This document shows, piece by piece, positions 1,407-56,280 of a stretch of 64,000 bases of DNA; position 1 is the first letter of the stretch, and each line of letters opens with the position of its first letter. A program made the translations under genes and the position numbers. The DNA comes from Eledone cirrhosa. Lineage: Eukaryota. Under the pieces are notes generated by a model. It worked only from the letters and a program-made list of their open reading frames with translations. It did not search any database and was not told the DNA's origin. The stretch is taken from positions 42,966,001 to 43,030,000 of the forward strand of contig OZ024740.1 of assembly GCA_964016885.1 (NCBI GenBank). Reading direction: 5' to 3'.

Positions 1407-1490
1407 ACCTTTACCGAATCGGTTTCGAATCTCAAAAATAAACGGAGACCATACGGCCTTCGTTGCAAAGAAAGATGCTCGTCAGAAGGT
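1407..1490 (-). ncRNA. Hammerhead ribozyme, inverted copy of family A
   Basis: Minus strand reads ACCTT-CTGACGA-GCATCT...AGATTC-GAAACCGATTCGGTA-AAGGT, with one stem II mismatch. Confidence 0.75.
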
Positions 1491-3675: not shown

Positions 3676-4025
3676 ATGCAGTATCGGTAGAAGATCAGAC
3701 ACCATGCATTCCAGCATAGTTACATCCCTTTACGGTCTGAGTTCAAATCCCGTCGAGGTCAACTTTGCCTTTCATCCTTACGGGGTCGATAAAATAAAGT
3801 ACCAGTAATGTACTAGGTGATTGCTGGCCTTGTGCCAAAAGTAGAAACAATTATAAATAAGATGTACACAGTGTTTTACGTTCTGAATTTAAAACCCCGA
3901 AGGGGTAACTTTGCCTTTAATTCTTACGGGATCAATAAAATAAAGTAGCAGTAATGCACTGGCACTGATTTAATCGAATTTCCCCTTCCCTCCCAATTGG
4001 TGATCTTGTGGGAAAAGTAGAAACA
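3676..4025 (+). mobile_element. Two tRNA-derived SINE copies (family 2)
   Basis: gcagtatcggtag...gagttcaaatcccgtcgaggtcaactttgcctttcatccttacggggtcgataaaataaagtaccag...ttgtgccaaaagtagaaacaatt; more than 12 copies occur in the window. Confidence 0.85.
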
Positions 4026-7101: not shown

Positions 7102-7330
7102 ATAAACAACATAAGACAACTATTCCATTTACCAAGGGTTTCACGAAGACAGACAAGTTTACATTTTCATTCTGATGAGCGATTTCAGACGTCTCTGTTG
7201 GGCTCGTCTGTCTTCGTGAAACCTTTGGTAAATGGAATAATTGTCTTATATTGTTTGTTACATAATTAAATAGCTCTGTAGCATACATAGAGCACTCTCC
7301 TTTCATTTATCCTTCCTACGGAAATACTTC
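7100..7330 (+). mobile_element. Non-autonomous Penelope-type pLTR remnant B with inverted 5' segment
   Basis: 7100-7155 is the reverse complement of ~7206-7260; flanked by microsatellites; contains an HHR. Confidence 0.75.
7165..7237 (+). ncRNA. Type I hammerhead ribozyme (family B)
   Basis: TTTCATT-CTGATGA-GCGA...TCGT-GAA-ACC TTT GGT-A|AATGGAA; all three stems form; GUA triplet. Confidence 0.8.
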
Positions 7331-9573: not shown

Positions 9574-11279
<1,706 letters not shown>

Positions 11280-11289
11280 AACAAGTAAG

Positions 11290-11383
11290 ACCCCGACGGC
11301 TGAGCTCAAGCCGTTTCGACGGCTAATTCTGTACTGAATGAAAATTTATTCTGGTATTTAAATAGCCGAACTTATCAAGGGGT
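11290..11383 (-). ncRNA. Hammerhead ribozyme family C, inverted copy
   Basis: Reverse complement of 13281-13374, including the TTGATAA core. Confidence 0.8.
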
Positions 11384-13280
11384 AATTCCATATATGGTCA
11401 AAGAGATAATCACCAGGATTAGTCACATCACAAGTTAATAGTAAATCTGTGATGGCAAGTTGGTGGGGGAAGGGGTAGCTAAACCTGCCGGTAGGAGAAA
11501 AAGGGAGAGGGGATGGAGTAGACCCATTCATGCGTTGGTAGTGCCAGCTACAGCTGGGTGTGAGGTCAAAGAGGATACTGGGGAGGGGGACGGGGAGGAG
11601 GTCGAAACTGTAAGTAGAACAATGAAAGGTAAAACTATAAAACGTACTGGGAGAGAAAAAAAAAAAAAAAGCAAAATCTGGTTACTTAGACTTAAGTCCC
11701 TCGCTATTGCTAGGCTAAAGAAATACATAAATAAATAAATAAACAAATAAGTGAATAAGAGAATAGATAAATATATATAAAAAAAAAAAAATATATATAT
11801 ATAATGTAGAATAAAAAAATAAATAATAATAATAAAAATAAACTAGGTGGGGCGGAAATAAAGGGACCCTTATACGCGGTAAAAGTGCGTGTATCGTACG
11901 GTGACGGGTCAACAAAGGGGGGGGGGGCCGAATACTAAAGAGACTACCACGAAAATAATAAAGGTTTCTACCCCAAACACAGGGCCAGCAACCACCCAGT
12001 GCAAGAAAGTAAACTAGTACGAGAATATAATTCAGGGTCCTGCAAAAAAATACTAGTGCTAACTCTAAGGGTACCGCCACGAAACAAAAGTCTTATACGA
12101 GCTACATGAAATATCGTACGAAGTAAAAGTAAAGAACGGAAAATTAATACAGGAACACCCCCCCCCTCCCCCCAAAAAAGAGAAAAAGAAAAAAGAGATA
12201 CTGGATAAACGCTTCCTCTATATTTCCTCCTTCCCCCATCCCTCCCTAGTCCTTCTACTCCAGTTCCCTTTCTTTGTCGTCGTCTTTTTCTCGCCCACCC
12301 GAGGTAGCCCATCGGTCCCTTATAGCTTCAGCACCCCCACCCCCTCCCCTATTCTATGATAGATTTGGCTGACTCCGCTTTTTATAGCAGAGGTGTTAGA
12401 CTTCGGATACTCGCCCCCTTCTCCGACCGCTGTCCCTTTTTTCCGTGCCTTCTATATTTCTTAGTGGCATCTTTGCTTTAATATTCGTTTATCCAGTATC
12501 TCTTTTTTCTTTTTCCCTTTTTTTTTGGGGGGGGGGGGGGTGTTCCTGTATTAATTTTCCGTTCTTTACTTTTACTTCGTACGATCTTTCATGTAGCTCG
12601 TATAAGACTTTTGTTTCGTGGCGGTATCCTTAGAGTTAGCACTAGTATTTTTTTGCGGGACCCTGAATTATATTCTCGTACTAGTTTACTTTCTTGCACT
12701 GGGTGGTTGCTGGCCCTGTGTTTGGGGTAGAAACCTTTATTATTTTCGTGGTAGTCTCTTTAGTATTCGGGACCCCTCTTTGTTGACCCGTCACCGTACG
12801 ATACACGCACTTTTACCTCGTATAAGGGTCCCTTTATTTCCGTCCCACCTAGTTTATTTTTATTATTATTATTTATTTTTTTATTCTACATTATATATAT
12901 ATATATTTTTTTTTTAAATTTATTTATCTATTCTTTTATTCACTTATTTGTTTATTTATTTATTTATGTATTTCTTTAGCCTAGCAATAGCGAGAGACTT
13001 AAGTCTTAGTAACCAGATTTGGCTTATTTTTTTTTTTCTCTCTCAGTACCTTTTATAGTTTTACCTTTCATTGTTCTACTTACCGTATCGACCTCCTCCC
13101 CAGTATCCTCTTTGACCTCACACTACCAACGCATGAATGGGTCTACTCCATCCCCTCTCCCTTTTTCTGCTACCGGCAGGTTTAGCTACCCCTTCCCCCA
13201 CCAACTTGCCATCACAGATTTACTACTAACTTGTGATGTGACCAATCCTGGTGATTATCTCTTTGATCATATATGGAATT

Positions 13281-13374
13281 ACCCCTTGATAAGTTCGGCT
13301 ATTTAAATACCAGAATAAATTTTCATTCAGTACAGAATTAGCCGTCGAAACGGCTTGAGCTCAGCCGTCGGGGT
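13281..13374 (+). ncRNA. Type I hammerhead ribozyme with U3-A8 core (family C)
   Basis: ACCCC-TTGATAA-G(TT)CGGCTA...TAGCCG(T)C-GAA-ACGGCT tgagctc AGCCGT-C|GGGGT, with a distal GGAA/TTCC extension of stem I. Confidence 0.8.
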
Positions 13375-14026
13375 CTTACTTGTTCCTATTACCCACTCTA
13401 CTACACTAAGTATTGAGTACTTTGGTGTGTTATGGTCCACCTGGTTCCTTACCACATTTCCTTCGTTACATATGTATATATCTATATACACACATAGTTA
13501 TGTGTTTATATATATGTGCATATATAAATATATATAGATATATTTATAAAGCAAGGGTATGAGGTCGGTATAAATATATGTATACTTATGTATATACAAA
13601 TATATGAATACATATGCGCGGAGTATACATATACATGTATTTGTAAGTGTATATGTGTGGAGGGGTGACTGTGTGTATGTGTGTGGAGGGGTGACCGTGA
13701 TTGTTTGGCCTCGACGGTCTCCAGATGTAACTATTATTGATCTTGATGGTGTATCATGGCGCTACATCTGAAAACAAAACCTTCTATTAGTATTATTTAA
13801 GATATCTTGCTATAAATATAACCAAAATATAATAAAGCTCAGTGCATTGATTATTATAATTAATATATGTTATATCTTTCTAAATGCAATACATTTGCCC
13901 TCGAGATTTTATGTCTGTCTCTCATTTCACACACGCACACACAGAGTCACACATACAGTCACACATACAGTCACACACACATGCACACACACAGACACCC
14001 ACCCACACACTCATACTTATATATAT

Positions 14027-18225: not shown

Positions 18226-18324
18226 TTACATGTCTCAGAAAAGCCTCTTTCTTTGAGCTATTTAATTGTAGGTGACTATCTTTAGTTTCTAACTCAATAT
18301 ATACCTTTGATATATATATATATC

Positions 18325-19173
18325 AATGGTATAAAAGCGTTAGCTAGAGCAGGATATAGTGATAAAATTATGTACATCGATAATAATAGGCAAACTAACC
18401 AATATAACAACAATTTTAATTACGGTAACAACTTTAACAACTATAATAGAAAACATTACAATAATTCCAAAAGCCAGAAAAGAAATAGAACTAGAAATAT
18501 AATATGGTTTGCCCCCCCTTTCTCACTAAATATTAAAACCCACATTGCTAAACTATTTTTTAATGCTCTTGACAAACGCTTCCCTAGAACACATAAATAT
18601 CACTCAATTTTTAATAGACATACTATAAAATTAACTTACTCGTCCACCAAAAACTTAGCACAAAATATTAACAGAATAAATAATAGGAATCTAAAACCTA
18701 GCCAAAATACCGATAATACCCTAAACAATATTCAATTAAACAACTGTAACTGTAGAAATAAATCTAAATGTCCGTTAAATAACAATTGCTTAGTTAAAAA
18801 TATAATATACAATTGTAATGTTAAAACTGACTTAAATTCTTTTAACTATGTTGGTTCCACCTCGACAGAATTTAAACTTCGCTATAATAATCATAAGAAT
18901 TCTTTCACAGATCCAGGCAAAAAATCTTCAAATTCACTATCAGGCTTACTCTGGCAACTTAAACATGATAAGGTTGGATATTCGTTGTTTTGGAATATAG
19001 TCTCAAGTGGGATTCCTTTTAATTCCTCATCTGAGACATGTGACCTCTGCGTGGAGGAGATATTCTTTATATTAAAATCTAAAAATTCCCTTAATCTAAG
19101 GAGCAATTTATTCAGTTGCTGCAGACATAGATTGAACTCAACGTTTAAATATAAATATAAATTTAAAATGTAG
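18325..19173 (+). mobile_element. 5'-truncated Penelope-like element: RT-thumb end plus uninterrupted GIY-YIG endonuclease (Naiad-like)
   Basis: ALARAGY...IIWFAPPFS...CNCRNKSKCPLNNNC..IIY...YVGST..FKLRYNNH...CDLC.EE...CCRH. Confidence 0.85.
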
Positions 19174-20724: not shown

Positions 20725-22815
20725 TTTATTAAAATAACAGATTAAAGTTTAAGCAAAGAATCGCTGCTTTCACTCTTAACGGGATCTTCTGAAACTAACA
20801 AAGTCAATCTGTAAACGCAGAACTGGATATTTCAAAAAACGTTGCAACCGGAGGAAGACAGGAAGACGATACTTTGGTTAGTGGAAACGTTCGCTGGCAG
20901 AGAACGGGAAAAAACGAATAATACGTCATTAATAGGAGCGGTGAAAAACAATTACGCGCAAAGACAGAACCACGTTTATGGTATAAAAGAGGTCGTAGAC
21001 TAATGTTCTCTTAGGTGGTGCATAGAGACGTTCTCTGGCAATGAACGAAAAAACGAAGATAATAAGTCATATGTGGAGCGTGGATAACAATAGCACGCAA
21101 AGACAAAACCACGTAAATGGTATAGCAGAAGTCGTAGACTAAAATTCTAACTAGGAGACCAAATGAATCTCCGCTACAGAGTTAAGAACAAAGTAAATAA
21201 ATACAATACAGAAGTAATAGAAACAAATAAATACATACACGCAAACAGATACGTACATACACAAGCATACGCAAAACCTTACCATAGGTATACAAAACCA
21301 CGCACATATAAATATGTGTGTGTGTGTATGCTTGTGTACAAATAAATAAATAATTATATAAGCGTATATAAGTAAATAAATACGTATATAACAAGCGCAC
21401 ACACATACCTACAAATAAATACACGGATGTTCGGAGACGTAAGTCAACTAAAACAAGAAGTACACATATACACACACCCACCATACGTACGAACCTGCAT
21501 ACTCACGCAGACGCACAACTCCCGTATACACATAGCCAAACCCTAAATACCAGAATATGTAAAAATTATACGCCATAACAGTCAAATATACGTACGAGAG
21601 GGTATACATACCTTCACAAAACATACGGGTAATATATACTTACCTATGCAAATAAGTAAAGGAATAAACAAAACATATACTTAGCTCTCACATCAAGACG
21701 TAAAATATCCACGTATAGATCGTGCTATCCGTTAGGGTATAACGTGGGGCTGTAATACAGGAAAGTTTTGTGCAATTTATGTTTACAAGCCGAAATTGCC
21801 TCAGATTTTTTGTTTAAGATGTGGTCTGTGGCGTAGAATATTTCCAGGGCCTCAGCGGCGCAGAGGTCACATGGTCTTTTATTTCCGTTATACGATCTAG
21901 CCCTAGCTAGGATCTCCAAGTGTAATTTATAATGGGTGTGGTTGTCTTTTAGACTCCAGATATAAGCTAAAAGTGACGTCATATTCCTTCTTAGAAGGTA
22001 ACGAAAAGAATGGGTATGCACGTAAAGACGCTGCTTGAAACTATTGGCGGTTAACCCTGTGTAGGCCCTACGGGACGTGGGTGTTACAACCTTACATTTG
22101 TAGACAATGTTACTAGAGAGGCATTTCCCGGATAGGGGGCAATCAACCCGATTCCTACAATTACAGTCAGTACTAACTACAGGGCTGCACGTGTTCCTAC
22201 GGCTAGGTAGTTTAGCTAAATTTGAAGCTGTGATGTTATGTGCAAGGTTAGGAGTCGTAGAGTAAGAAATGTTAATAGTATTTCTATTAAAAATTTTACT
22301 ATATTTATGTGTAGGGGGAAAATGCTTCGTAATAAGGGAAAGAAAGATCTTAGCTAGTGGTGTGGCCACCTCCATATTATATGGTGGGTTAAACCAACAA
22401 ATGCGACGGGATCTATTTCTTATAGGTCTATTTTCGTACTCTGTATATGCTACCTTATCGACAAATCCACTTCGAGCAAGAGCTTCATTGTAATAAGTGG
22501 AATGGTCGTTGAAAATGCGCTCTTTGGTGGAAAGACGGGAAAGCCTCAACTGCCAGCGAACGTTTCCACGAACCAAAGTATCGTCTTCCTGTCTTCCTCC
22601 GGTTGCAACGTTTTTTTAAATATCCAGTTCTGCGTTTACAGATTGACTTTGTTAGCTTCAGAAGATCCCGTTAAGGGTGAAAGCAGCGATTCTTTGCTTA
22701 AACTTTAATCTGGTATTTTAATAAATATTTGCTCTACAGTTCTTATATATTTGATATATATTTTCCTTATCGAGCCCTCTTTGGATTTTAGTCTTCAATT
22801 TTATTATTATTACTA
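20725..22815 (-). mobile_element. 5'-truncated Penelope-like element with GIY-YIG ORF (21725-22550), 3' pLTR and inverted 5' pLTR
   Basis: ORF has WFNPPY, CNCRNRVDCPLSGKC, IVY...YTGLT...KQRLYVH and CDLC. 20725-20900 is inverted at 22550-22728. A ~140-bp duplication lies at 20885-21150. Confidence 0.88.
20746..20796 (-). ncRNA. Hammerhead-fold motif with CAGAAGA core (family L; other copies at 22654-22704 + and 52407-52457 -)
   Basis: Consensus of the three copies: AGTTT-CAGAAGA-T CCC gttaa GGG T-GAA-AGCA...TGCT-T|AAACT, with a distal CAGATT/AATCTG helix. Same sense as the PLE ORF. Confidence 0.6.
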
Positions 22816-30689: not shown

Positions 30690-31708
30690 TACAAGCAGAG
30701 CGAAAATAAATCAGTACGTCTGAAAATTAGAGATAATGGTAAATTTCTCCGCTAGGCAGTGATTACATGTTCTGGATAGGGAAGAATTAAGGTAAGGAGA
30801 GGCGTTGCAAACCTTTCTCCAAGAAATGTTGTAGTTAATATGTTTGTCCTTTAAGGACCATATGAGTTCTGAGAGTGCTGTGTTAGTTCTTTTAAGTTGG
30901 TATCTAAAAGAAGAATTGTGATTATAAGATTTTGCCTTAAAGGAAGTGGAAGTGGAACCAAAATAGGTAAAAGAATTAGTACCAGTTATAACTTACATTC
31001 ATGCACTAAATGTTTATCAAGACATTGGTTACTAAGAGGACATTTAGTTCTAATAGGGCAATTGCAATTACGATTAGAGTAATTACCAAAGTTATTAGCA
31101 AGTGACCCAGTATTATTTATATAAGGAATTGAATTGGAGAAGTTACTTACGATAGGTGCTAAAGTTTCCTGATTTAGATTGGTATTATTAACATTCGACA
31201 AATTTACGTTTGACGTCGTATTTAAATTTACGGAATCTAGCCTAGAGTTAACATTGACGTCGGGCTTACTATTGTTATTATTATGACGCTCAGTGTTGGA
31301 TGGATATGATTTATTACTTAATATTTTAGTATTATGTTTTGAGATAATGTTAGAGATGTTGGAATTGGTGGAATAAGAGAATTTAATTGTATGCTTATTA
31401 AAGATCTTACTATAAATATGTGAAGGAGGGAAGCATTTATCTAAGGCCCTAAAATATAGTTCAGGAATATCATTAATAATAGATAGAGAAAAAGGAGCGT
31501 TGTACCAAATCATATTTTTATATCTAGATCTTTTCTTTATGCTATTGGAATGCTTATAACTAACTATATTACTATAAGTTCCTACATGATTGGTTTCTTT
31601 ACTGTATTTAATTTTGTCAGGATAACCGGCTCTGGAAAGCGCATTGTTGTAATAATTGACTTTAGCGTCAAAGATAAGTTTATTGGCTTTAACGTCAAAG
31701 ATAAGTGT
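30690..31708 (-). pseudogene. Penelope-like GIY-YIG region (frameshifted)
   Basis: YYNNALSRAGY...IWYNAPFS...CNCPIRTKCPLSNQC...YFGST...LSELIWSLKD...CNHCLAEK. Confidence 0.85.
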
Positions 31709-31713
31709 ATCCT

Positions 31714-32492
<779 letters not shown>

Positions 32493-37711: not shown

Positions 37712-38030
<319 letters not shown>

Positions 38031-38378
38031 ATATATATATGTGTGTTATTCATGAAAATTATGGGCATATAACATCATATATATTAGCAATGGGCTCCGA
38101 ACCTCAGAAATGAGTATGGGATAAGATCAGACCAGGCTAGTGTGTGTGTATACATAGAAATACACACACGCATATATACTCATACGTACGTATGGAAATA
38201 TCTAAGCATGTAGAGTTGAATGCAATTGCAGAGATAAATATCATAAAATACTTGGTTCTTAAATGGGAATACATCTTTCGAATATATAAACGTATTACTA
38301 TGTTTTAATTCTTTCCATACGTCCAACAAATAAGTGAATTCTGGGTACAAAACAAAATTCCAGCATTAATATTTAGAT

Positions 38379-38955
38379 TGGATTGGCAGTATCGGTAGAG
38401 GGCCGGATGCCATGCTTTAACGCCTTGCCATTCTGAGTTCAAATCCCGCCGAGGTTAACTTTGCCTTTCATCCTTACGGGGTCGATAAAATAAAGTACCA
38501 GTAATACACTGGTAATTGCTGCCCTTGTGCCAAAAGTAGGAACAATTAATATTTAGATAAAACAGCAGTATGAAGTTAAATATTGAATTGCAGTAATGTC
38601 TTTCTTGTTACGGCCCTTTACGTTTTGAGTTCAAATCCCGCCGAGGTTAGCTTTGCCTTTCATCCTTACGGGTTCGTTAAAAAAAACACCAGTTATGCAC
38701 TAGGGATTTACTCAACTTTCTCCTTCCCTTCAAATTGCTTGCCTTGTGCCTATAGTAAAAATCATTGGTGGACTGGCACTATCGATGAAGGGTCGGACGC
38801 CATGCTTTGCAGCACAGTTGCGTCCCTTTACTGACTGAGTTCAAATCCCGCCGAGGTTAACTTTGCCTTTCATCCTTACGGGGTCGATAAAATAAAGTAC
38901 CAGTAATACACTGGGATAATTGCTGTCCTTGTGCCAAAAAGTAGAAACAATTATT
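38379..38955 (+). mobile_element. Cluster of three family-2 SINEs
   Basis: Conserved SINE body; the first copy is flanked by the TSD attaatatttagat. Confidence 0.85.
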
Positions 38956-39416: not shown

Positions 39417-40153
<737 letters not shown>

Positions 40154-42120: not shown

Positions 42121-42511
42121 ATATATATATATATATATTTCTATCTATCTCTGGGATGGACACACGCGTGAAACTTCCTGAGTAACTTCTGCTTAAATTT
42201 CTATAGAAATTCTTGACTGTAAACCTTCATTTTTGTACCCTTTTGTAGAGGGACTGCCAGGTCAAATTTTGATCTGGTCAGTCTCTCAAAATAGTCTACG
42301 CCTTTAGGCGAAATAGTTAACAAAAGGTTTTTTTTTGAAAAGCTAACATTTTTTAAAAATCGCTGAAGCTTCTTCACCAATATTCGAAGGAGGAAAGGGG
42401 AAGATATGCTTACAGCTTCCCCCTGCCACTGTCACAGTAGCAGAGGTTAAAGACAAAGGTCAGCCAGAGGAAGGATTTTTTCCACCTGCTGTCCGACAAC
42501 TTGACGTTGCC

Positions 42512-43970
42512 ATGGCAACAAACCAAACAACAAGCAGCACCAGCAACAACAACAACAACAATGCTACGGATGAAAACAACACCAACAACAATAACAATAA
42601 CAACAAGACCAATAACTGTGATAACAACAACAATGATAACAACACCACCAATTACAACATCAACACGAACAAGGAAAAGGTCTCCTTCGCCCAGACGGCA
42701 AGGAAAACCCTCGACTATCTGCCAGTAGATATAACCAAAGCGAAGGAGCTACTGGCAGATGCCAAAAAATATATAGTGTACGGGGAAAATGGATCATTTT
42801 GGATCCCCCCCCCCCCGGAACAAAAATGCCAGAGACTCCTAACAATGTCATGTTTAGGACAGTCTCAAACAAAAGCAAAAAACCAGCTCAACCATCACAG
42901 AGTGACATAGAGCTGGTTTTAAAAGATGTCATGAAAGACATCATATTCATTCAGAAGGATAGCCTCTACGGGAGTCAATCCATTCTCATGAAGGACAGGG
43001 ACACAGCAGTGAAACTGTCCATAAAACCAATTACATCCACCGCATACACCTACCCTACGTACATGGGTAGAAGGACACAAAAAATAAAAATTCACACCAT
43101 CCTGCCGATTATGGACATATGGTGGGTTTTGACAAGTTTCCTGAACCTAGACGATGACACACTAATATCCATGGGAAAGGCATCGGGTGACGCGTTCAGT
43201 GGAACGAGCCTGGAACTTGTAGTTCAAATGAGGCCCGAAAGGATCGCCCAGATCCCTGAACGCGTCATACTGGATGATCAAACTTTTATCAACATTACCG
43301 TTGAGGGTAGGCGGCCCTCGTGTTACCTCTGTGGAGCCAAAGGTCACCTGAGTGCTGTCTGTCCTCAACTTAAAAAGAAAACCCCAATCCTGCCTACACC
43401 ACCAACAACTGCACAACCAACACAATCACCACAACCACCACTACAAAATCAACAACCACAGCTCAAACCAAAACAAAACAATGTCCAACCCATCGCCCCC
43501 ACTAAAAAAAAAAAATTTCCAAAACACCCGCACCGCAAACACGACCCGAAAATCTACCCCTCCCCTCCAACGCGGAAGATGACCCTCGTCCGTCGTCAGA
43601 CGAGGAGGAGCACTTCCACATAATAAAAAAAAAAGAAAACACAGCTCAGACACACAAATGAAAACAACCCCTCCCCAAAACATAACACTGACACCAACAC
43701 AAAAGAGCACACAACAGCAAACAAAAAACACCACACAAAAACAAAAACATGCATACACATACATAAACACAAGAAATAAAAAACTGTTAAACATTGTGTA
43801 CAACAACAATTTAATAAAAACCCAAGGGCCTAACTTCACCCAGGCAGGGGATTTCCCCCACCTCAAAATGATTAAGGCCCCAGAGGACACATATAAAACA
43901 CTAAAAAACAACTTTAAAGAGGACGTGGGACCTCCTGCGTCGGGCCCATTAACCGCGTCCACCTAAACAA
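42512..43970 (+). pseudogene. LINE ORF1 (gag-like, CCHC knuckle), frameshifted
   Basis: CYLCGAKGHLSAVC; frame breaks at poly-C ~42805 and poly-A ~43505. Confidence 0.8.
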
Positions 43971-44154
43971 CTACCCCACCCCCTCCCCAAACACCCACAC
44001 AACTCCAAACACCCCAACCAGACAACACACTGATGCCCCTACACTTCCACAAACCACCACCCCACCCAACAACCCATCCCCCACCCTCATGGAAATTGCG
44101 CAGCCCGATACCCGGGACGCAGAGAGGTAAGTGCCTTTTCTCTTCACCACCAAC

Positions 44155-47100
44155 ATGGCTATGCTAAGAGTAGGCTGTCTAAATGCGCGTGGCCTGGGCT
44201 CAACTTGGAAGCAAGCACTGCTTCTAAATGACCTCAGGTCACAACGTATAGATGTGATGGTTATTTGCGAGGCCCGGATCAGCAACGTGCGACAGCTGGC
44301 CCCCACCTTTGATGACTTTGAGATGCACGCATCTCTCTGTCAGCTCGGAAGTGGGGGTGGGGTTGTCGTTCAGCTGCAAAAACATCTGGGTCTCGCAACA
44401 CAGGCGGTACATTTGGACCCGGAGGGTCGACTAGTGGTTCTGGACCTTGGCAGTGGTGAAGGCGGAGCCTTTAGGTTGGTAGCCGTCTACGGTCCTTTCG
44501 GGTCAATGCGGCCGGACTTCTTCCATCGTCTGGAGACTTTTCTAGGGACGTCCTGCTCCTTGCTATTAGTGGGGGACTGGAATGGTATCCTAGATGCACG
44601 TTGGGACTACGTAGGGGCCTGTCCCGATAGAGAGGGATGTAATAGCCTCAAAGGGTTAATCGGTCGATTTGACCTGGCCGATAGATATCGACTAGATTTT
44701 CCGACTGCGCCAATCTGGACTTGGGCAAACCGCAGCGGATCATCTAGGTCGTACCTAGATAGGTTCTTAGTTAGAAATAAGGATAAGGGCTTTTTAAGTT
44801 GTCCAAAAATGCGCATGGTTGGCTATTCAGACGACAAATTAGGGACCTGCATGATAAACCTTGACAGAACGCATAGACAGGGACCCGGTTACTGGAAGGT
44901 CAACTTATCCTTACCGGCAAGTAAGGCTTACAGGGACCGTATTAGCACTTTAGTTAAGGAGCGGTTGACGGGCGCCATCGTCAACAGCAGGTGGTGGGGA
45001 TCTCTCAAAAGAGAGATTAGAGTAGTCTCTATAGAATTTAGTAAGGAGTTAGCCTCAAACAGAAATAGGAAGGAAAGGTAGTTGGTAGATAGTGTAGAAG
45101 AGGCAATTAGAAGCGGTGACGTGGCCAGAGTGCTAGCGTCGGGAACGGCCCTGGCCCAGTTCTTCGACGCGAAACACGAAGGCTGCATCGTCCGAAGCAA
45201 AATACGTGCTCTGGGAAACGAGGGGACCAAAGCTGTTAGCTGGGCCCGCGTTGACAGAAGCCAAAAGAGGGAGTAGATCCACTATCCGGTCTTTGCGAGA
45301 CCAGGATGGACGTGTGATACTTGAGCTTAAGCAGATGTGCGAGGCTTTTCAAAAGCACTTTGCCAGATTGTTCGGAAGGGGTGGGGAGCCGGTTGGGGAA
45401 GTGGACTTCAGTCCATACCTCGACGGCCTGCCGCGTCTCTCGGACAGGGAGGCGAAGTCCTGCGAGGAGCCAATTTCAGCCGCTGAGATAGAGGACGTGC
45501 TGAGCCAATGCGGCAAACGCATTCCCCGGGTCTCGATGGTCTTCAATACGAACTATATCTATCTATGCCGGACTTGTTCCTCGATGTCCTCGAGGCGGTC
45601 TACTGCAACTGGCAACAGAACGGGAGAATTCCCTGTGCTGTGACCAAGGGCGTAGTCACGCTAGTGAGGAAGGACGAGAACAAGGGGGACGATATAAATA
45701 ATTTCAGGCCCATAACTCTGTTAAATACAGAGTTACAGATGTTGGCTAAGGTGCTAGCAAAGAGGTTGGCGCTTGTCGTGGGCAACCTGGTGGGAGATGC
45801 GCAGACATGTGCTATCCCGTTCAGGTCCATCCACGATAACCTCCACCTCATGCGATACATCATAGAGAGGGTTGGGAACGAACCCGGCTTAGGTGGGGCC
45901 CTGATCAACTTGGATCAATCTAAGGCGTTCGATAAGGTCGACATGGTTACCTGGATGGGGTGCTAGCGGCGGCAGGCTTCGGACCCGTTTTCAGGGGCTG
46001 GATCAATGCCATGCACAGCAGCCGCATCTGCTCTAGGATCAAGGTGAACGGCTACCTCTCCAAGCCGTTCGAAATCGCGCGGTATATACGACAAGGGTGC
46101 CCTATCTCTTCCCTTCTGTATGTAATGACTCTAGAGCCACTGCTGCGGAAGTTTGAGTTGTTGCAGGGCATCCCGTTGGAACCGGGATTGCGGAAAACAG
46201 TGTCCGCCTACGTCGATGACGTAACAGTAATGGTGTCGACGGCCTCGGAAATCGGGGCGATCGGCACCTTACTGGAGGAGTACGAAAGGTTTACAGGGCT
46301 AAGCTGAACCGGGACAAGTCGATCGGTCTGCAACTCGGCACGTGGAGGGGCAGATCGATGCCCTCCGATGGCGTCATCGGGCGCTGGACGGAGGGCCCGG
46401 TGAAGTTACTCGGGGTCTGGTTCGGACCAGACCTCCAGGTGGAGAAGAAATGGGGTGAGGTAACGAACAGGGTGTTTGCACTGACCCAGAAGTGGGCCGA
46501 GTGTAAACTGTCCCTGAAAGGTCGGGCGGAGGTGGCGAACACTTATATAGCGTCTGTCATCTACTACCGCCTGACCGTTGTGCCTTGCCCAAGGGAAACG
46601 CTCGCCAAAATGGAGCGCGCACTTTTCCAATTCCTTTGGAAGAAGCGGGCTCCTATGGTGAGGAGATCCATCTGTTGTCAACACCCTTCGAAAAGAGGGC
46701 TGGGAATGCCGTGGCTAATGATACGTAAACACGCATTAAGGCTACGGTACCTCCAGGTATTCCTCACCGGTCAACCGGTGTGGGCCCCGTTTGTGAGGCG
46801 AGCCTTTCCCAGACTCGTCTCACTCACCGAGCTGCAATCCTGGGTCAAACAAAGACCGAGAAAACTGGGCGCCTGGCACACCGAGTGTGCCCAGGCGCTC
46901 ACGGCTCTCTGGCAGGCGGACCCGGCTGTCAGTGGAGAATCCACCTCGTCATTCTATAGAGGGCTGGTGGTTAGCAGGTGCGACGACGCCCTCGGAGAAG
47001 CCCTAGGCATGGAGGAAGACGAACAGACCAACCTGTTCGGTAGGACATTCAGCCCGGGATCCATGGATAACTTCCAGAAGTCCCTGACCTGGCAGTGCTA

Positions 47101-47590
47101 CCGAGGGGCTCTGCCCGTTCGAGAAAGGCTCTACAGACACGGGCGCCCGGGTAGGGACCCCTCGAAAAAGATCTGTCCCAGATCCGTCTGCGACGAGGAA
47201 ACCGTTGCACACGCATTGGTACACTGCTCGGGCATTGCCGATCTGTGGGGCTATGTCGAACAACTGCTGCCAAGGGTGGGACCGATCCGGTTGACCACCG
47301 AGTCTATTGTAATGATCAAGCCGCCTCCCCTCTTCAAAAACGAAGGAGAGGTGGTGTTTCTGTGCGTAATAGCCATGGCGAAAGAGGTTGTATGGTGGAC
47401 GCGTCTGAAAGGACTGAGGTCTGACACCTTTCTCTCTGGCCAACACCTGGTCCGTTTCTTCCGATATCATTTCGGAAGAAGGATCAGGATGGAGAGAGAG
47501 GTGCTGCACCCAAGCCGTTTTTATGAAAGATGGGTGAAAGTGGCGAGAATGGCCCGTGTGAATGGGCCTTCACTCTACATCAGACTATAA
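44155..47590 (+). pseudogene. LINE ORF2: APE endonuclease, reverse transcriptase and C-terminal Zn finger
   Basis: LNARGL, GDWN, SYLDRF, SDD(H), PGLDG, FRPITLLN, LDQSKAFD, RQGCPIS, YVDD, CPR..C...ETVAHALVHC; stop at 45079-45081 and several frameshifts. Confidence 0.92.
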
Positions 47591-48767: not shown

Positions 48768-49075
48768 ATAATTGTTTCTCCTTTTGGCACAAGGCCAGCA
48801 ATTAATCCAGTGCATTACTGGTACTTTATTCTATCGAACCCGTAAAGACGAAAGGCTAAGTTAACTTCGGCGGAATTTGAACTGAGAATGGCAAAGGGCC
48901 GTATCTCTATGCGTCAAATCATGGCGTCCGACCCTCTACCGATACTGCCAATCCACAGACCTAGAAAATAATAGTAATGATAATTGTTTCTACTTTTGGC
49001 ACAAGGCCAGCAATTAACCAGTACATTACTGGTATTTTATTTTATCGATCCCGTAAGGATGAAAGGCATAGTTTC
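48768..49075 (-). mobile_element. Two family-2 SINEs
   Basis: Reverse-complement SINE bodies; a 23-bp duplication cagacctagaaaataatagtaat at 48744 and 48956. Confidence 0.85.
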
Positions 49076-50755: not shown

Positions 50756-50827
50756 TTCCCATACCGGGAATCTAACCCGAGCGGCCTGGGCGAAAGCCAG
50801 GAATCCTAACCACTAGACCACATGGGA
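50756..50827 (-). tRNA. tRNA-Glu(UUC), probably a pseudogene or variant
   Basis: 72-nt cloverleaf TCCCATGTGGTCTAGTGGTTAGGATTCCTGGCTTTCGCCCAGGCCGCTCGGGTTAGATTCCCGGTATGGGAA; the T-loop reads TTA instead of TTC; no T4 terminator immediately downstream. Confidence 0.85.
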
Positions 50828-52384: not shown

Positions 52385-52610
52385 ATTTATTAAAATAACA
52401 GATTAAAGTTTAAGCAAAGAATCGGTGCTTTCACCTTTAAGGGGATCTTCTGAAACTAAAAAATCTATCCTTGAACGCAGAAGTAAATATTTCGAAAAAC
52501 ATGTTTACTTCTGCGTTCACAGATTGATTTTTTTTAGTTTCCTATATATTTGATATATATTTATCCTTTTCGAACCCTCTTTGGATTTTAGTCTTCAAAT
52601 TTATTATTAT

Positions 52611-55212: not shown

Positions 55213-56096
55213 AAATACATTAGTACATGAATACATACATATATGAACACATAGATGCATACCTAAATTTATACACGCTTATAAAAATGGCACAATCAAC
55301 ACCAGACAGACATTCGTAAAAACGATCGTCCAATTTGTGATTTTGAAGGTTTGTCTCTACAAATATGTCGATATACTCCAGCCTATATTAAATAGAAGTT
55401 TAGTTTTTCTTCAATTATAACTAACAGAAACACATTTTACTCACTAACTAAGGTTTGTTCAGGCTATATTGCAAAGCACTTTATTTCTTGCGGGATTTCG
55501 CTTTTCGAATTATAGATTGCACAATTAACAACACCAATACTAGCACTACAAGCATCAACAATACTACATGCGAGATTTTTAAATGACGTGTGTATTAGCC
55601 TCACTTCATTTGGTGTTTGTATTTAAATGAATATCTACTCAGGTGTTAGGAAAACGATACTTTTCACGACAGTATGCAGAGTAACGGCACATTGTCAGTA
55701 ATATGGTGGCTAAACAGCAGCATTGGGATAAAGCCTGCCTAAACCTAAACTAAAAGAGATTTGATAAGATGCCATACTATTTGATTTCTGAAAACATTTA
55801 AAAGTAGTCAAAACTATCTCCTAATGCCATCATCGCCATCGCTTAATTCTAATACATCTCGGTATGAAACAACCTTCAGAAATATCTATGGAATAAATAC
55901 TACATAAAATGCTCCCATATTAAAAGGTATTAATGATATCACTGGGGAGTATATGGAAACATGCTATAACATTTATTGGACAATTAAAAGCTGTTTATAT
56001 ACGGCTAACACTGCTTTGAAAGTGACATAGGAGTTATCGACAGTGCAAGCAGTAATGAAATAACTAAGTGCAAACAAGCTGGATAAATGAAATAAT

Positions 56097-56280
56097 TGTT
56101 TCTACTTTAGGCACAAGGCCAGCAATTATCCAGTGCATTACTGGTACTTTATTTTACCGACCCCGTAAGGATGAAAGGCAAAGTGAACCTCGGCGGGATT
56201 TGAACTCAGATCGTAAAGGGACGTAACTATGCTGGAAAGCATGGCGTCCGACTCTCTACTGATACTGCCAATCCACCGCC
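56097..56280 (-). mobile_element. Family-2 SINE with 18-bp TSD
   Basis: ctggataaatgaaataat at 56079-56096 and 56281-56298. Confidence 0.9.

Follow-up and report, generated by a model that had tools for sequence, protein, structure and literature searches.

The hammerhead motif at positions 13281-13374 of the window, by which we mean the whole 64,000-nucleotide stretch of Eledone cirrhosa DNA analysed here, is, as judged from its sequence context, the ribozyme motif of the terminal repeat (pLTR) of a 3.6-kb Hydra-type Penelope-like retrotransposon. In this family, A at core position 8 is fixed and position 3 alternates alone, without covariation between the two. The young subfamily of the window copy is nested among copies with a C3·A8 mismatch, which suggests that the lineage likely lost the 3-8 pair and then regained it while transposing. 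What is new in these results is the likely continued spread of the family during this broken-pair stage, which would make self-cutting at least partly dispensable.

The hammerhead motif and its parent element

The motif has the layout of a type I hammerhead, its core being surrounded by three helices of which stem I is open. Stem I is ACCCC/GGGGU, and its 5' strand adjoins the heptamer UUGAUAA; the pair G10.1-C11.1 closes stem II, which carries a long AU-rich loop II, and GAAA follows C11.1; stem III comprises 5 bp with a palindromic loop, and the cut site reads UC. With U3 at 13286, A8 at 13291, G12 at 13347, and U16.1 and C17 at 13368-13369, the motif contains the required U4, G5, A6 and A9, G12, A13 and A14, A15.1-U16.1, H17 and G10.1-C11.1. 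The hammerhead three-way junction is the minimum-energy fold of this segment (−24.9 kcal/mol, z=−2.3, equalled by 1 of 200 shuffles) and dominates the predicted ensemble of the 94-mer, with pairing probabilities of 0.7-0.99 for all three stems; the value for stem I falls to ~0.5 once 100 nt of extra downstream sequence are added. Sequence and fold thus confirm the hammerhead described in the earlier note. The expectation that a standard search would miss it was likewise borne out, in that Rfam at the gathering threshold reported no hammerhead in the 64-kb window, this motif included. We rejected two other structural assignments. Stems II and III share sequence, but the probability of the alternative hairpin in the window copy is just 0.01, so that a two-state switch is not indicated; the minimal dimer-type hammerhead of Penelope-like elements, defined by an absent or 1-2 bp helix III plus an extra nucleotide after A9, does not fit a motif with a 5-bp stem III and no such nucleotide. 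The copies of the family found in the window are as follows.

11275..12211, minus strand: inverted arm of the same insertion, 5'-truncated, adjoining (TA)n (self-comparison, copy alignment)
11290..11383, minus strand: hammerhead motif in the inverted arm, identical to 13281-13374 (reverse complement the same letter for letter)
12210..13388, plus strand: direct copy of the element 3' end (3' UTR/pLTR), 5'-truncated, ending 19 nt past C17 (92% identity to the full-length natural copy L152)
13281..13374, plus strand: type I hammerhead motif with U3-A8 core; cleavage is predicted 3' of C17, at 13369 (sequence, fold prediction)
13286..13292, plus strand: core heptamer U3 U4 G5 A6 U7 A8 A9 (sequence, variation across genomic copies)
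13389..13468, plus strand: 80-nt 'tail' extension at one end only, followed by TA-rich target (copy-end clusters)
31709..32114, plus strand: reverse transcriptase (RT)-coding fragment from an older subfamily of this element (94% identity to the full-length copy L144)
32112..32378, plus strand: older pLTR fragment with a decayed hammerhead, UUGAGAA at 32274-32280 (5' strand of stem I missing, A in place of G12 at 32337)
37783..38040, no single strand: two 3' halves of this motif forming a short inverted pair that lacks the 5' core (self-BLAST)

The window insertion consists of the truncated direct copy (12210-13468) and the inverted truncated arm (11275-12211), lies in (TA)n and has a tail on one end; its arms diverge at 2.8% of 899 aligned sites. 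Because both arms belong to one insertion, their two motifs represent a single event. The earlier note had adduced the inverted arm and the diverged copy at 32274 as evidence of covariation. The identity of the former and the UUGAGAA heptamer of the latter are as described, but the two are not independent support: one is the same insertion and the other, with its stem I 5' strand replaced and A in place of G12, is by its sequence a dead copy.

In full-length natural copies (L152, L153 and L144), one open reading frame, broken in all three, is flanked on both sides by hammerheads ~3.6 kb apart; the core is U3-A8 at both ends of L152 and C3·A8 at both ends of L144. A single RT plus endonuclease frame between two hammerhead-bearing pLTRs, together with the inverted 5'-truncated copy and one-sided tail of the window insertion, marks the element as Penelope-like. 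The features of the Hydra clade are also present, namely the change of DKG to DKT, a CxCx5C linker, a divergent RT4, a C-terminal endonuclease and insertion into (TA)n. RT and endonuclease were assigned from motifs picked by eye, which we take to be YRDD and GIY-YIG-like, and the Hydra placement was made by features in the published description; searches of Pfam and PDB with this frame yielded no significant match. A protein search recovered 993 homologues, the closest relative outside the genome (P0009) being 58% identical. The Naiad clade was considered and rejected, given the C-terminal endonuclease and the presence of a hammerhead. Among 257 copies examined, 91 stop 17 or 19 nt past C17 and 89 stop 97-99 nt past it. 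We also observed that the 3' UTR lengthens from ~650 to ~1,250 nt along the subfamily ladder (tree rows L045-L160).

The window contains remnants of further elements. At least three other families are represented by canonical C3-G8 hammerheads, at 1407-1490 (minus), 1894 (plus), 7165-7237 (plus) and 14464 (minus). Endonuclease remnants of further Hydra-type families occupy 18286-19173 (plus) and 30986-31711 (minus), and a relative of the latter carries a canonical CUGAUGA hammerhead. A frameshifted LINE-type element spans 42347-47590 (plus), with frames that, from their motifs, we presume to be ORF1-like, AP-endonuclease-like and RT-like. A tRNA match at 50756-50827 (minus) lies beside dispersed repeats, with related repeats at 3678-3854, 38776-38954, 48768-48948 and 56092-56268, and possibly represents a tRNA-derived SINE family.

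Core positions 3 and 8 within and between families

We searched the 3.0-Gb genome with one 23-nt pattern around the core, on which the exact counts for this family rest. The U3-A8 core of the window copy, Watson-Crick-compatible at these positions, has 2,000 exact matches (0 in the backwards control), and the mismatched C3·A8, which is not so compatible, has 383 in the same context. A letter other than A at position 8 occurs in just 34 matches genome-wide, among them 4 C3-G8, 7 U3·G8, 1 A3-G8, 14 with C8 and 8 with U8. With the heptamer left free there were 1,309 matches, and in a hand count of the first 100 of them A8 was present in 99, G8 in none, U3 in 71 and C3 in 29. From these counts and this sample it follows that A8 is fixed and that position 3 changes by itself. 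The proposal of the earlier note that positions 3 and 8 covary family-wide, such that each subfamily would have a paired, fully active core, is favoured by U3-A8 being the majority state and by the covariation seen between families; within the family it is refuted by the excess of C3·A8 over C3-G8 and by the lack of G8 in the unbiased matches, and we give it almost no chance of being correct.

As had been argued, the U3-A8 core is not a product of decay; no other core is as common in the family. Between 10 subfamilies (193 of 216 copies classified), 51 of 106 flank and loop columns differ; differences are significantly fewer in the rest of the core (0 of 13 columns, Fisher p=0.0004) and in the stems (2 of 30 columns, p=1e-5), while position 7 shows all four letters. 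Because the copies were chosen by patterns fixing parts of stems II and III and GAAA, the conservation of the stems and GAAA is inflated; the free-heptamer sample shows conservation of the 5' core without that bias.

The C3·A8 copies form a subfamily rather than a scatter of individual mutants, since 89 of the first 100 matches read CUGAGAA and a full-length copy has this core at both ends. The prevalence of G7 in these copies, compared with 4 of 100 listed U3-A8 matches, could indicate a register shift, whereby G7 of CUGAGAA would replace G8 and pair with C3, leaving a core without N7 and with one additional A ahead of stem II; Penelope hammerheads do often carry a supplementary nucleotide following A9, according to the available text of PMC4209133. 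However, G7 is already present in U3 subfamilies before and after, so that the link can be plain inheritance, and no precedent for a core lacking N7 was found in the accessible literature. We regard such a rescue of the C3 subfamily as highly improbable.

In a sister Hydra-type family, the corresponding site holds a hammerhead-shaped motif whose letter at the invariant position 4 is A, and this family is the most abundant that we counted (17,754 exact matches); only 165 matches have another letter than A at this position. The CUGA turn is broken in this motif, and its lowest-energy fold pairs GAAA away. Within the window, the sister family is represented by the following.

20745-20796, minus strand: sister-family motif C3 A4 G5 A6 A7 G8 A9 (exact pattern)
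22654-22705, plus strand: the same motif (exact pattern)
~52405-52460, minus strand: the same motif (exact pattern)
21725-22615, minus strand: sister-family endonuclease remnant

The UUGAUAA heptamer also occurs elsewhere. A second hammerhead with this core at 39931-39975 (plus) has short canonical stems, a palindromic stem III and 210 exact matches; its family looks unrelated to that of the window element, and the stems of its relatives are changed but paired. A 591-bp tandem non-coding repeat (L231-L260; for example, 1501-2091 of L246), located in (TA)n with inverted arms, uses UUGAUAA with 5,943 matches, shows no clear DNA similarity to the window family except in simple repeats, and resembles a non-autonomous retrozyme. 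In metagenome contigs, related elements provided 78 loci, 39 of them with a clear hammerhead, 38 of which are C3-G8 and one G3-C8; a U10.1·U11.1 mismatch is present in 15 of the 39. The G3-C8 element (L272) has the core GUGAUCA in both terminal repeats, at 285 and 2788 (plus). Three metagenome matches (two U..A, one CA..G) that scored low, lay within the reading frame or lacked UGA were excluded, the reversed control producing one such match. Between families, then, the sequences indicate that 3/8 covariation does hold and that U3-A8 is derived. The earlier interpretation is partly supported.

History of position 3

We reconstructed a tree of 58 natural copies from the endonuclease and 3' UTR, excluding the core and dropping 4 duplicate rows. 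In this tree, the young U3 subfamily of the window is a clade with 100/100 support within the C3·A8 copies, reached via three starred branches, and the older U3 subfamilies sit beyond a 100/100 branch. Monophyly of the C3 copies is rejected (p-AU 0.0003, or 0.021 without three rows), and position 3 changes at least two times with A8 constant. The order of states by age is likely U, C, U, so that the changes would run from U to C and back. Distant families and protein outgroups gave no clear root, and a local tree of 219 columns was poorly resolved. Arm-to-arm divergence in pattern-picked pairs is 0.056 for old U3 (n=14), 0.046 for C3 (n=12) and 0.030 for young copies (n=6), with p ~0.08 each; the full set of pairs, in which close matches are over-represented, gives 0.056, 0.040 and 0.018.

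A different history would be that C3·A8 was a dead-end side branch, or that the young subfamily acquired U3 from an older copy by recombination, in which case the surviving lineage was never broken. Three columns unite all C3 copies against young plus old, against five that favour nesting; monophyly is not rejected on endonuclease DNA alone (p-AU 0.18), and the young branch is long. The grouping of late C3 copies with the young ones is nevertheless supported at 100/100. Two markers that flank the core, one 7 nt upstream and the other where loop II ends, agree with the late C3 copies, being present in 33 of 60 C3 copies, 50 of 53 young copies and 1 of 15 older U3-G7 copies; such proximity leaves a very short tract for any conversion. 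Either way, C3 masters still yielded hundreds of copies. Taking these observations together, we consider an unbroken surviving lineage improbable, and favour loss and regain of the pair.

Under loss and regain, the change from U to C at position 3 would have passed through successive master copies and been undone in the line leading to the subfamily of the window copy, in which a clean predicted fold would also have been regained: a hairpin that buries G12-A14, predicted to be inactive, has a median probability of 0.58 in C3 copies and 0.01 in young copies.

Cleavage and comparison with published systems

The reading that we favour, and consider reasonably probable, is that the window motif is a published type of U3-A8 hammerhead in a Hydra-type Penelope terminal repeat, that it likely cuts slowly after C17, and that the lineage likely tolerates weak cutting. 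Under the model of PMC4209133, as far as its available text sets it out, the 5' hammerhead would free the element RNA from read-through transcripts. Inserted copies extend to 17-19 or 97-99 nt past C17 and hence span the cut site, from which it would follow that the 3' hammerhead is uncut or religated at the onset of reverse transcription. A 3' hammerhead that must be uncut or religated may, in turn, place selection on a correct but not a fast ribozyme. The element would thus possess a slow but real ribozyme with its core under selection, and be able to survive a damaged core. A scan covering all double mutants of another hammerhead (PMC9901934, available text) found low activity after single changes at 3 or 8; the G-C swap alone rescued the 3-8 pair, and the U-A double mutant ranked with the variants of low activity. 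By that scan, C3·A8 is predicted to be weak and the activity of U3-A8 to depend on context.

Alternatively, the motif might no longer cut in vivo and be kept as a folded signal, bound by an element protein, that sets the two reverse-transcription starts. Propagation of C3·A8 masters, the A4 sister family with its misplaced GAAA and the fixed distances of copy ends from the motif are all compatible with this proposal, and, as the accessible part of PMC11167929 reports, mutants of a lizard Penelope hammerhead that can no longer cleave remain capable of insertion in vitro. Yet the nucleotides of the chemistry (G5, A6, A9, G12-A14, U16.1 and C17) are frozen while N7 is free, position 3 went back to a pairing letter, and the wider group retains a paired 3-8 in three forms, all of which argue for cleavage and make a pure binding signal unlikely in our view. 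A tentative further suggestion, which we consider less likely than not, is that catalysis is optional, Hydra-type elements having reached hundreds (C3·A8) and more than 17,000 copies (A4) with non-cutting cores, and one lineage having re-evolved a working core. If so, one master lineage would have given up hammerhead activity and later recovered it.

The interest of the family rests on the mismatch subfamily and the A4 sister family, not on U3-A8, which is already a published variant, in Penelope hammerheads included (2011, 2014), so that the novelty implied in the earlier note does not hold. Together with the A4 sister and the C3-G8 families, the dated natural series U3-A8, C3·A8, U3-A8 is useful for asking whether Penelope hammerheads need to cut, and bears on the natural exchange of one core pair for another by way of a mismatch. 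In the literature accessible to our search, we found no amplified natural C3·A8 or A4 core, although Lunse et al. 2016 or the supplements of Perreault and Craig might list some.

Natural U3-A8 variants are described, and stated from earlier work to be active in vitro, in the available text of Perreault et al. 2011 (PMC3088659); the compensatory pair is the same, and the mismatched C3·A8 core does not appear in that text. Cervera and De la Pena 2014 (PMC4209133, available text) report U3-A8 hammerheads in Cercyon Penelope-like elements of Schistosoma mansoni, with ~1,300 genomic hits and the heptamers UUGAUAA and UUGAAAA in their Fig. S3. The window motif shares with these the type I topology, location in the pLTR, replacement of C3-G8 by U3-A8 and the heptamer UUGAUAA. 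The Cercyon hammerheads, however, are minimal and dimer-type, without helix III and with an extra nucleotide after A9, whereas the window motif combines a long stem-loop II with a stem III of 5 bp, capped by a palindromic loop, and has no nucleotide added at that point.

With the Hydra clade of C-terminal EN+ elements, as presented in the accessible text of Craig et al. 2021 (10.1101/2021.04.23.441226), the window element shares DKT, the divergent RT4, the CxCx5C linker and the C-terminal endonuclease, as well as the hammerhead, (TA)n targets, the inverted truncated copy and the one-sided tail. It is ~3.6 kb long and present in thousands of copies, compared with 'generally <3 kb' for that clade. 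The same text describes no hammerhead core variants and terms the function of the hammerhead in these elements 'still unclear'. Finally, the Poseidon element PAc of Anolis (Frangieh et al. 2024, PMC11167929, available text) resembles the window element in having a hammerhead in the pLTR and a tail between two reverse-transcription starts, but belongs to a different clade, has the canonical C3-G8 and carries a tail of 30-40 bp, as opposed to 80 bp in the window element.
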